This document shows positions 29,939 to 31,686 of a DNA stretch of 64,000 nucleotides, in pieces. The position numbers and the translations under genes were made by a program. The DNA comes from Dehalococcoidia bacterium (lineage in GTDB: Bacteria; Chloroflexota; Dehalococcoidia; Lucifugimonadales; UBA3495): the NCBI GenBank assembly GCA_965222025.1, contig CBDCTI010000008.1:408531-472530 (forward strand), in the 5' to 3' direction. Within the stretch, counting starts at the first letter, position 1. Each line of letters opens with the position of its first letter. A model generated the notes under the pieces. That model ran no database searches, was not told where the DNA came from, and saw only the letters and a list, made by a program, of their open reading frames with translations.

Positions 29939-30196
29939 ATGCGAAAGGAACACCAGCAGACGCTGGCCGCGATTTTCCGCCATCCCACCCCGTCGGGCAT
30001 AAGGTGGGACGATGCCTTGGCGTTGCTGCAAGCCTGTGGGGCGGAGATTGAGGAGCGCGGAGGTTCGATGACTGCTGTGTTCCTCAACGATGAGTTCATA
30101 TTGTTGCACCGGCCTCATCCGGGCAACGAGATCGACAAGGGTGCTGTGGCGTCGCTGCGCAGATTCTTGGAGCAAGTTGGGATCAGGCCCAGCTAA
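29939..30196 (+). CDS. hicA: HicA-family toxin
   Basis: TLAAIF.HP...IRW.D..LL..EERGGS..HRPHP. Confidence 0.88.
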   Translation: MRKEHQQTLAAIFRHPTPSGIRWDDALALLQACGAEIEERGGSMTAVFLNDEFILLHRPHPGNEIDKGAVASLRRFLEQVGIRPS

Positions 30197-30210
30197 AAGG
30201 GGGCAGGCAG

Positions 30211-31686
30211 ATGGAATATAACGGGTACCACGCAGTTGTGACCTTCGACGAAGAGGTGGGCCTCCTTCATGGAGAGGTGATTGATACGCGCGACGTGATC
30301 ACCTTTCAGGGCAAGTCCGTGGACGAACTGGAGCAGGCCTTCAGAGCCTCGGTCGGAGAGTACCTCAAAATCTGTGAAGAGAGAGGGCGAGTCCCGGACA
30401 AGCCCTTCTCCGGACGGGTCGTACTGCGCATGGAACCAGAGACACATCGTGCCGTTTCTGGAGCCGCCAGGATCAGCAGGAAGAGTCTTAATTCCTGGAT
30501 TCTGGAAGCGATTGACTGTCATCTGACTCGTGCTGATGAAGAAAGGGATCCCGTGGCACGCGATCCGGAGATATTTGACTCAGCCGCCGCCTCTGAAGTC
30601 GAAGCATTTTTGCGCGAGGTTTCGCAACGGCATAGCCGGCAGGACCCGGTTAGCCCGGTCATCCCCTTCTGGGTGGATCTCTACAACGGGCGTATGTGGG
30701 CCAGTGACGTCCAGCCGGCCCATGAGGTCCTTACGTTCGAGGCTAAGCCGCCCTATCCCAACTCAACTGGACACAGCCCATTCATTAAATTCCTCAGGGA
30801 TGAAGTGAACCTTAGTCAGAGTCGGCTGGATCAATTGGAAACCAGCGTCGGCGCGGTGGACGACTACTTCAAGGACAGCCTGGCCGGATACCAGAAGATG
30901 GAATGGCAAGGTTCATATGCTCTAGGCACGTACGTCAAGCCAGTGGACGACAACAACGAGTACGATGCCGACATTCTGATTATGATGAAGCAGAATCCCA
31001 AGTGGGAACCCGAAGACTTCGTCAACGAGGTTTTCAAGACGCTGCAAGGTAACAAGAACTACGCCGACAAGCTCAGGCTCAAGACTCGATGCGTCACCAT
31101 AGACTACGCCGGAGACTTTCATCTTGATGTAGTCCCATGTGTGACTAGCGGCGGTAGGCACTACATCTGCAACAAGGTTGACAACCAATTCGAACAAACT
31201 GACGGCACCGGATACCGCGACTGGTTCAACGAGCGCAATCGCATCACCGGCGGCAATCTGAAGCGAGTGGTCAGGTTGCTCAAATACCTCCGGGACCACA
31301 GAAACGGTTTCACCGCCAAGTCGATTTTGCTGACCACCCTTGCCGGCGATACCATCAAGTCGTCCGATGCAGGAACTGAGGCCGTGAGCACGGTTGCCGA
31401 CACAGTTGAGACTGTCTTAACCCGGATGAACGGGTACCTGCAGCAGCACCCCAATATGCCGGAGATAAAGAATCCGGTGTTGCCGACGGAGAACTTCAAC
31501 CGCCACTGGGACCAGCGGAGGTACGCCAATTTTAGGAACCGAGTGCAAGCCTACGCGCGCACCGCCAACAAAGCGAAAGCCGAACCATGGAGTGAGAAAT
31601 CCATCAAACTTTGGCAGAACCTGTTCGGAGACACCTTCGGCGAAACCACAAGCTTTGGCGGTGGTGGCCGGTTCGCGGAACGGTAG
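30211..31686 (+). CDS. HicB antitoxin fused to a SMODS/CD-NTase nucleotidyltransferase
   Basis: aa ~1-105 are HicB (MEYNGY..ITFQG.SV.EL..KPFSG..LR..H..SLNSWI); C-terminal part has QGSYA, EYDADI, HLDVVP. Confidence 0.85.
   Translation: MEYNGYHAVVTFDEEVGLLHGEVIDTRDVITFQGKSVDELEQAFRASVGEYLKICEERGRVPDKPFSGRVVLRMEPETHRAVSGAARISRKSLNSWILEAIDCHLTRADEERDPVARDPEIFDSAAASEVEAFLREVSQRHSRQDPVSPVIPFWVDLYNGRMWASDVQPAHEVLTFEAKPPYPNSTGHSPFIKFLRDEVNLSQSRLDQLETSVGAVDDYFKDSLAGYQKMEWQGSYALGTYVKPVDDNNEYDADILIMMKQNPKWEPEDFVNEVFKTLQGNKNYADKLRLKTRCVTIDYAGDFHLDVVPCVTSGGRHYICNKVDNQFEQTDGTGYRDWFNERNRITGGNLKRVVRLLKYLRDHRNGFTAKSILLTTLAGDTIKSSDAGTEAVSTVADTVETVLTRMNGYLQQHPNMPEIKNPVLPTENFNRHWDQRRYANFRNRVQAYARTANKAKAEPWSEKSIKLWQNLFGDTFGETTSFGGGGRFAER

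Follow-up and report, generated by a model that had tools for sequence, protein, structure and literature searches.

The stretch of DNA analysed here (the window) covers 64,000 nucleotides of contig CBDCTI010000008.1 from a Dehalococcoidia bacterium, and on its forward strand it carries a two-gene cassette, in which hicA is followed after 14 nt by a single 491-aa open reading frame (ORF), as taken from the ORF list. This ORF, with AAAGGGGG ahead of its ATG, codes for one fusion protein composed of a HicB antitoxin, an 85-aa domain that we named X, and a CD-NTase (the cyclase of CBASS, the antiphage system in which cyclic oligonucleotides serve for signaling) with its catalytic residues. Two known systems, the HicAB toxin-antitoxin (TA) module and CBASS, are joined here in a new conserved architecture, together with a new small domain. 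A preliminary description of the same DNA had already reported hicA and one 491-aa HicB/CD-NTase ORF, and the coordinates, Pfam and PADLOC all agreed with it. The cassette contains no nucleotide receptor or effector gene and no gene for the CBASS conjugation enzyme E2, and the unit consists of hicA and the fusion only.

The architecture was found repeatedly. In a search of 5.8 billion clustered proteins, 8000 candidates were scored and 1621 had E ≤ 0.001, and among the best 120 matches listed, at least 15 clusters (P0001-P0015, 87 member sequences) combined HicB with the CD-NTase domain SMODS, with 67-100% identity and 97-100% query cover. P0001 differed from the window protein in one residue. 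The remaining 104 of the best 120 listed were cyclases with 57-60% query cover and 73-80% identity, and one further cluster, P0016 (355 aa), contained X and the cyclase only; it adjoined P0009 in the tree and can be read as a truncated copy or gene call. A second DNA context was obtained from a SAR202 metagenome-assembled genome (MAG; locus L001, genome G756), the sole other organism with fusion DNA among the genome contigs searched, and three metagenome loci (L057, L058 and L059) were 100% identical to L001 and added no context. The nucleotide homology between the window and L001 was confined to 29910..31687 (77.8% over 1778 nt) and began just before the palindrome of the promoter region. It spans promoter to stop codon only, which means that the two-gene cassette is the conserved unit, placed in unrelated flanks. 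A CBASS operon encodes its cyclase together with a nucleotide-activated effector, and in the cassette no such effector is encoded, since the homology stops at the stop codon. Flanking repeats marking the cassette borders were not found, and the GC content was flat across the cassette region. The hosts of the fusion were uncultured marine Chloroflexi, and sponge-associated samples were among the RNA sources.

The preliminary description had considered that the fusion could be a singleton, a misassembly, or a frame from which the cyclase is translated separately, and all three were rejected. The at least 15 clusters and the second context L001 exclude a singleton, and an independent 1502-nt contig from another study (X3) covers 29802-31086 with one difference and no indels listed, so the junction is not misassembled. 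In-frame ATG, GTG and TTG codons were absent at residues 176-190, where stand-alone cyclases begin, the nearest in-frame ATG to the cyclase start was M162, within X, and X is itself under purifying selection. Public runs of nine studies contained the stretch. In two RNA libraries of one study (X17 and X18), hicA, HicB, X and the cyclase were all covered by contigs of a relative, the two longest of which differed at 3-4 letters per 100; DNA carry-over into these libraries is possible. One metatranscriptome contig crossed both the hicA/hicB gap and the HicB/X border, and the X/cyclase border (30780/30781) was bridged by 31 nt in no listed RNA-library piece. A 677-aa frame in another locus (L054) was discarded as a high-GC artefact overlying a short HicB.

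Selection was analysed for one pair, window versus L001, by the Nei-Gojobori ratio of nonsynonymous to synonymous substitution rates (dN/dS; dS 0.47-1.16). The dN/dS was 0.035 for the HicB part (93% amino-acid identity), 0.14 for hicA (87%), 0.19 for the cyclase domain (67%) and 0.32 for domain X (64%), so all cassette parts have a dN/dS below 1 and are under purifying selection. The cassette is also rare: of 401 genomes sampled from the class, one had a full junction match and one had domain X, and of 301 sampled from the order of L001, only G756 had X-cyclase. Ten loci on viral contigs were matched, with no fusion among them, 13 plasmid records were matched at less than 60% identity each, and no cyclase above 53% identity to the fused one was found in the phylum sample. 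Such a narrow distribution (one class genome plus one other genome-contig record), the mobile neighbourhoods (the window has an integrase and fragments of insertion sequences (IS), and L001 has a resolvase) and one cluster with a catalytic-site change are what would be expected of a selfish or stabilizing TA module with a passenger cyclase, in which the fusion would have no defence role. We regard this as quite improbable, since the cyclase and X kept a dN/dS of 0.19 and 0.32 over a dS of about 0.6-1.2, the architecture was kept down to 67% identity, and the catalytic residues were present in 15 of 16 fusions.

The N-terminal part of the fusion matched Pfam HicB (PF05534) at residues 51-101 with 50.8 bits (cut-off 21), together with a TacA1-like match, and it was 71-82% identical to stand-alone HicBs (87-133 aa) in Dehalococcoidia MAGs. 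The first AlphaFold2 (AF2) model, of the whole fusion, was poor (predicted local distance difference test, pLDDT, 57.9). In the AF2 secondary structure, the HicB part had three strands and a helix, followed by the helices of a ribbon-helix-helix (RHH), with a pLDDT of 77-90 at residues 1-60. Complex prediction of HicA with fusion residues 1-190 gave an interface score (ipSAE) of 0.66, and the best of three controls scored 0.09. Among 80 solved complexes, 58 reach this mark, as do 2 of 110 mismatched pairs. At least 96% of the contacts were common to the HicA/HicB-X prediction runs, and the partner pLDDT was at least 85. The modelled interface comprised HicB residues 11-60 and HicA residues 38-79, M44 included, and X was not involved in it. 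Because HicAB is a textbook pair with complexes already solved, this pass shows likeness to solved HicAB complexes and is not proof that this copy binds. Of proteins 270-860 aa long that have words in common with this HicB, we found only the 15 fusions and one HicB-HEAT-repeat protein (P0126, 313 aa), in which a HicB, 51% identical over the N-terminal part, is fused to HEAT/Armadillo-type repeats according to precomputed Pfam.

The promoter search returned 5 sites in the region, compared with 1.2 expected, and at the matching place L001 has a TTGACG-18-TATCAT promoter. The core of the palindrome over the -10 element, AGTATCA-N5-TGATACT, was kept in L001 with a different spacer. The layout of promoter and palindrome has the usual look of an autoregulated TA promoter, and the palindrome is a putative operator.

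The product of hicA (ORF1) matched Pfam HicA_toxin (PF07927) at residues 23-82 with 36.7 bits (cut-off 27), and phmmer with this HicA alone did not match the solved HicAs. It belongs to a subfamily of 84-85 aa HicAs, which lay upstream of HicB homologues at most loci fetched by the HicB query. With a profile of 24 subfamily members, the motif G-S-R/M aligned with G-S-H of the Yersinia HicA3 (4p78) and also with the H24A site of the Burkholderia HicA (4c26), both in the E range of 0.05-0.09. Position 44 of the window HicA is Met where solved HicAs carry the catalytic His, and none of 74 distinct relatives had His at this position (R in 59, I in 7, S in 3, M in 2, L in 2 and V in 1). By this alignment the HicA is non-canonical, the textbook catalytic His being missing from the whole subfamily, so the "canonical hicA" of the preliminary description has to be given up and RNase-toxin activity stays putative. 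H60 was kept in 73 of 74 relatives and H57 in 60 of 74, and these two could be the catalytic residues of this subfamily.

HicA has an RNA-binding fold, HicB is an RHH protein, and RNA or DNA activates enzymes of the OAS/cGAS type. HicA and HicB might be nucleic-acid-binding regulatory subunits, which would hold the cyclase on phage RNA or DNA or activate it there, and not a TA pair. The missing canonical His fits with this, as does cluster P0109, in which a cyclase of the same clade is fused N-terminally to a DNA-binding helix-turn-helix (HTH) domain. We nevertheless judge it improbable: at most fetched loci the HicA subfamily stands upstream of ordinary short HicB genes, as TA pairs do, the conserved H60 and H57 could be catalytic, and the conserved palindrome points to sequence-specific autoregulation.

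Between HicB and the cyclase, the preliminary description had seen a linker of about 75 aa. By sequence comparison this segment is a conserved small domain of 85 aa, which is also found without a cyclase. The nearest stand-alone HicBs end at about fusion residue 105-147. Residues 106-190 were searched against 1.84 billion representatives and matched three proteins, which were the fusion's own cluster, P0121 (76 aa) and P0122 (a 191-aa HicB). A profile of X searched against longer proteins found 20 proteins, namely the 15 fusions, P0016 and four HicB-X clusters without cyclase (P0122-P0125, 190-198 aa, on contigs up to 33 kb), in which Pfam detected HicB only; the proteins with X share one motif (Table 1). 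Since HicB-X proteins exist without a cyclase, HicB-X came first and the cyclase was captured later. X had no match to Pfam or to sequences of the Protein Data Bank (PDB), and a match of X in genome G821 was spurious, caused by an upstream extension. In a second AF2 model, of X with the cyclase (mean pLDDT 85.1, predicted template modelling score 0.76), X formed one helix (residues 124-141) and three strands with a pLDDT of 66-77, and in the AF2 models low-confidence segments (pLDDT <50) lay on both sides of X. Atlas scores for X of 0.76 and of 0.90 (Reg_prop), with 139 and 122 features in common, are leads at most. The helix of X (..EVEAFLREVS..) is faintly like the first helix of stand-alone cyclases (..EFAEFLRDEVN..), a likeness that was not significant (hmmsearch E about 2-3).

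In a paper on E2-associated CdnG (PMC12948482), the C-terminal E2-binding motif consists of a helix and three strands with a conserved Gly after them. The modelled X has the same make-up, a DG after strand 3 is conserved in HicB-X proteins without cyclase, and in both contexts a type II CBASS stands at 0.5-1.9 kb from the cassette, with E2 in the window and with E1E2 and JAB in L001. X might accordingly be an E2-recognition element, and HicB-X, with the cyclase or without it, would either be a substrate of the conjugation enzyme in type II CBASS or stand guard over it, with E2 activity controlling HicA. This is very improbable in our view, because the likeness lies only in the count of secondary-structure elements, X had no sequence match to PDB chains or to the cyclases and cyclase-E2 fusions compared, the Gly is not kept in the fusions, and in this clade the cyclases end in a low-complexity tail and not in the CdnG motif.

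The C-terminal part of the fusion matched Pfam SMODS at residues 189-343 with 101.6 bits (cut-off 26.5) and PADLOC Cyclase PDLC00793 at residues 189-480 (2e-109). G234-S235, D252/D254 and D306 aligned with the GS, DxD and third Asp of a solved CD-NTase, as the preliminary description had held. The cyclase model aligned with CdnB, CdnC, CdnD and CdnG structures at TM scores of 0.6-0.77, normalised to the target, and the sequence likeness to the solved CdnG was weak (1.9e-12, N-lobe only). With its profile match, GS, DxD, third Asp and modelled bilobed fold, the domain is a CD-NTase by sequence and model, and its activity is predicted.

The fused cyclase had been described as a clear paralog of the convergent cyclase in the window, and the two are indeed 51% identical over 296 aa. 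The neighbour is, however, not the closest relative, and the relationship is not general, the neighbour in L001 belonging to another family. A duplicate of the neighbour was rejected on the same grounds: among the best 120 matches listed, the closest cyclases were stand-alone proteins of 334-348 aa with 74-80% identity. These stand-alone cyclases carry a long low-complexity tail ending in ..EARRFG, and at least five of them were fused to an E2 with SEC-C motif. Type II CBASS cyclases are conjugated by E2/Cap2 through a C-terminal tail with Gly or Ala at its end. The long RFG-ending tail was cut down in 15 of 16 fusions: 6 end in ..FG directly after the core, 8 end in G-R[FL][AV][ED]R(L), one keeps a long tail (..GFGQTP) and one differs. 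A FastTree of the cyclase domain was built from 122 rows, taken from the best 120 matches and rooted on the neighbour; the order of events was not drawn from it. In the clusters P0007, P0010 and P0011, the cyclase N-lobe was like that of stand-alone cyclases, and they look like mosaics. Cluster P0109 (440 aa; 11 member sequences, 8 contigs) has a cyclase of this clade with an N-terminal XRE-type HTH (HTH_37, PF13744, 29.9 bits) and a long C-terminal tail.

Table 1 Features of the cassette and of the neighbouring CBASS in the window
Feature	Position	Strand	Description
Promoter, sigma-70-like	29890..29919	+	TTGGCA-18-TATCAT, 10/12 matches
Palindrome CAGTATCAT-ATA-ATGATACTG	29911..29931		Overlaps -10; putative HicB (RHH) operator
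hicA	29939..30196	+	85 aa, long HicA subfamily, M44 at catalytic-His site of solved HicAs
Whole fusion ORF	30211..31686	+	491 aa
HicB part of fusion	30211..30525	+	Residues 1-105; HicA-binding N-domain and ribbon-helix-helix (predicted)
Domain X	30526..30780	+	Residues 106-190; helix and three strands (modelled); motif PVSPxIPxWVD..G..W
CD-NTase domain	30781..31650	+	Residues 191-480; G234-S235, D252, D254, D306
C-terminal tail GGGGRFAER and stop	31651..31686	+	Relatives have a tail of about 45 aa ending in RFG
E2 (SEC-C motif), neighbouring CBASS	32153..32836	-	PADLOC E2 PDLC00872, 1.2e-24
CBASS cyclase, neighbour	32833..33792	-	Same PADLOC family as fused cyclase; 51% identical
Patatin-like phospholipase effector, neighbouring CBASS	33789..34727	-	Pfam, PADLOC
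CapH-like HTH and CapP-like M78 peptidase	34876..35268 and 35222..35818	+	Divergent from neighbouring CBASS

The neighbour of the cassette in the window is a complete type II-short CBASS on the minus strand, convergent with the fusion, in the order patatin-cyclase-E2. The longest E2 ORF (to 32950) overlaps the cyclase gene by 118 nt and its PADLOC match starts at residue 51, and the E2 probably starts at ATG 32836, with an ATGA overlap with the cyclase stop. In L001, a convergent type II CBASS with TIR-SAVED effector, JAB and E1-E2 lies 1.9 kb downstream of the cassette, with an AbiJ-like gene in between. On contig 44 of G756 we found a cyclase-E2 fusion followed by a patatin, and this cyclase is of family PDLC00793 and 74% identical to the fused cyclase of G756, so both cassette genomes hold a patatin/E2 CBASS with a PDLC00793-family cyclase. 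Of 301 genomes sampled from G756's order, 30 had a match to same-family cyclases, and so had 6 of the 401 in the phylum sample of the window, a number that counts G000 (the window genome). A co-resident same-family CBASS in two genomes is a hint, and it gives some support to an alternative in the preliminary description, a second cyclase feeding the patatin.

We tentatively prefer to explain the cassette in this direction, as a HicA/HicB-X-gated auxiliary cyclase that would signal to the resident patatin effector, and we hold this somewhat short of an even chance. The cassette would be an autoregulated HicAB-type operon, whose HicB, with X already attached, would have captured the cyclase of a patatin/E2-type CBASS. 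HicB would repress its own promoter via the palindrome and bind HicA via its N-domain, the shortened conjugation tail would release the cyclase from E2-dependent control, and the HicA/HicB-X module would hold and dose the cyclase in place of E2. Infection would then disturb the HicA/HicB-X complex, possibly by a shift of the HicA:HicB ratio or by cleavage in the segments of pLDDT <50 around X, and the cyclase would become active. It would make the nucleotide of the resident same-family CBASS cyclase, this nucleotide would activate the resident patatin in trans, and HicA may contribute an RNA-directed arm. We infer the cyclase activity, the product identity, the patatin activation in trans, the gating by HicA/HicB-X, the trigger and the HicA toxicity alike.

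Several observations weigh against the gated auxiliary cyclase. The tightest constraint by dN/dS was on HicB and HicA and not on the cyclase, and the fusion to an antitoxin suggests a direct role of HicA. The adjacent CBASS cyclase in L001 is of another family (PDLC00822) and gave no match in tblastn with a 1e-5 cut-off, while the same-family CBASS of G756 is on another contig than the cassette and not adjacent to it. The DNA context comes from two genomes only, and the co-occurrence may reflect ancestry, recombination or co-transfer and not function. At 51% sequence identity, the same product from the fused and neighbouring cyclases would not be assured, and the exception among the fusions, P0007 (12 member sequences), has D302E and D306A. 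The fusions also did not form one clade in the cyclase tree: P0007, P0010 and P0011 nest among stand-alone cyclases, which suggests that fusions exchanged their cyclase with resident CBASS genes.

A part of these observations would fit better with the main rival, a self-contained hybrid, in which the cyclase and/or X senses the phage and HicA is the effector. Activation, binding of the product in cis or cleavage of the antitoxin would loosen the HicB N-domain, so that HicA is freed and growth stops; no nucleotide receptor would be required, a CBASS-type cyclase would control a toxin as part of its antitoxin, and X, perhaps with the neighbour's E2, would set the trigger. This takes up the first idea of the preliminary description, less its decoy element; the guard/decoy reading itself gained no support and was not contradicted either. 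Here an infection-sensing enzyme is joined to a toxin inhibitor, the cassette moves as two genes with no effector gene, HicA and HicB are its most constrained parts, and their modelled interface stands far above the controls. Since there are HicB-X proteins that lack a cyclase, X may have been a sensor on a functional antitoxin before the cyclase joined it, and one lineage (P0007) tolerates the loss of the third catalytic Asp. We still think it rather unlikely, as its proposed effector is a HicA without the catalytic His in itself and its subfamily, with RNase toxicity only putative, X is outside the modelled interface, and the retention of the cyclase catalytic residues in all but one of the fusions argues that the product matters, yet no receptor for it is evident.

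Compared with the HicAB type II TA systems (reference structures: Yersinia pestis HicA3 4p78, Burkholderia pseudomallei HicA 4c26 and HicAB 6g26), the cassette has the same order of hicA then hicB, Pfam matches above the cut-offs, a HicB N-domain with RHH, a palindrome over the -10 and a modelled interface of HicA with the HicB N-domain. It differs in that its HicA is 85 aa long with an N-terminal extension and Met for the catalytic His, its antitoxin has 491 aa with X and a CD-NTase, and toxicity is putative. HEPN/MNT systems contain MNT, a minimal nucleotidyltransferase that AMPylates its toxin. Like in these, an antitoxin with a Pol-beta-type nucleotidyltransferase domain stands beside an RNase-family toxin, but with 74-80% identity to bona fide CBASS cyclases, the fused domain is expected to make a cyclic nucleotide. 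Lau et al. reportedly described in 2022 a repressor and a protease, CapH and CapP, that control CBASS transcription. The cassette similarly couples a DNA-binding repressor to a cyclase, and the CBASS next to it in the window has such a pair; unlike in CapH/CapP, a covalent fusion links the repressor-like module to the cyclase, and the module has HicA as its partner and not an M78 protease.

With E2-type (type II short) CBASS, for example the Serratia marcescens CdnG-E2 (8hsb; PMC12948482), the cassette shares the CD-NTase catalytic residues and fold, and its cyclase belongs to the PDLC00793/00787 family found beside or fused to SEC-C E2 and patatin. It differs in having no effector or E2, an added N-terminal HicB-X and a shortened RFG-type tail. 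For the protease-activated CD-NTases, a preprint (Hobbs and Kranzusch, bioRxiv 10.64898/2026.03.04.709575) describes a loop within the cyclase in clades A, D and G. A switch that works by cutting a disordered, exposed segment would be common to both, given the low-confidence segments flanking X in the fusion, but a loop of about 30 aa as in that text was not identified in the fusion, and cleavage is purely what we infer. In the literature searched, with supplementary tables and subscription papers outside its scope, no HicB-CD-NTase or SMODS-HicB fusion was described, in agreement with the preliminary description, and the supplementary tables of CBASS catalogues may list the architecture.

TA modules and CBASS count as two distinct branches of abortive-infection immunity. 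A HicB antitoxin/repressor and a CD-NTase in one selected protein indicate that the two can be wired together, and the usual E2 control appears to be replaced by the HicA/HicB-X module, so that the two genes make a compact test bed for what switches CD-NTases on. The analysis also flagged a large HicA subfamily in which the textbook catalytic histidine is missing, and it defined a small new domain on HicB antitoxins. If the fused antitoxin were the sensor and HicA the executioner, the cassette would be the first physical bridge between TA and cyclic-nucleotide immunity, with a toxin controlled directly and without a SAVED/STING/patatin-type receptor.

Other features of the surroundings were as follows. 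Within the 466 nt that separate the fusion from the E2 gene (31687..32152), there are two inverted repeats, one of 20 nt with 90% complementarity (31704-31723/31865-31884) and a perfect one of 14 nt (31884-31897/32059-32072). A block of five genes lies directly upstream, at 23107..28640 on the minus strand. It encodes a 595-aa helicase of the SNF2 family, two proteins (429 and 329 aa) that match BrxC/BrxD-like ATPases, and two more, of 180 and 304 aa, that matched nothing in Pfam or PADLOC; the block looks like a defence system of no known class. The island is framed by remnants of mobile elements and an integration module (28722..29420, 36156..38518 and 39528..41001), with two fragments that by eye are IS630-like and IS3-like, an IS110-type transposase that is split (Pfam), a tyrosine integrase with arm-binding domain, and a small AlpA-like gene. 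ARAGORN found no tRNA genes in the window.

The second context, L001, is likewise a defence island (3779..6413 and 9600..11026), with a pair of AAA_21 ATPase and DUF4276 protein and a serine resolvase, and from the cassette to the TIR-SAVED CBASS it contains an AbiJ_NTD3 protein and a 115-aa ORF without matches. The window genome contains a third SMODS gene (G000 contig 2, 134573..135064, L042; 339 aa), which showed no relation to the fusion (tblastn 1e-5). By eye, the 194-aa ORF after it contains hydrophobic stretches, and this locus is probably a separate small CBASS. In L170 (G821 contig 1, 2218..6953), we found an operon of patatin, PDLC00787/00793 cyclase and E1-E2 (PDLC00847), with a divergent 388-aa RmrA/CapP-like protein, and the cyclase of this operon ends in ..EGQGFG.

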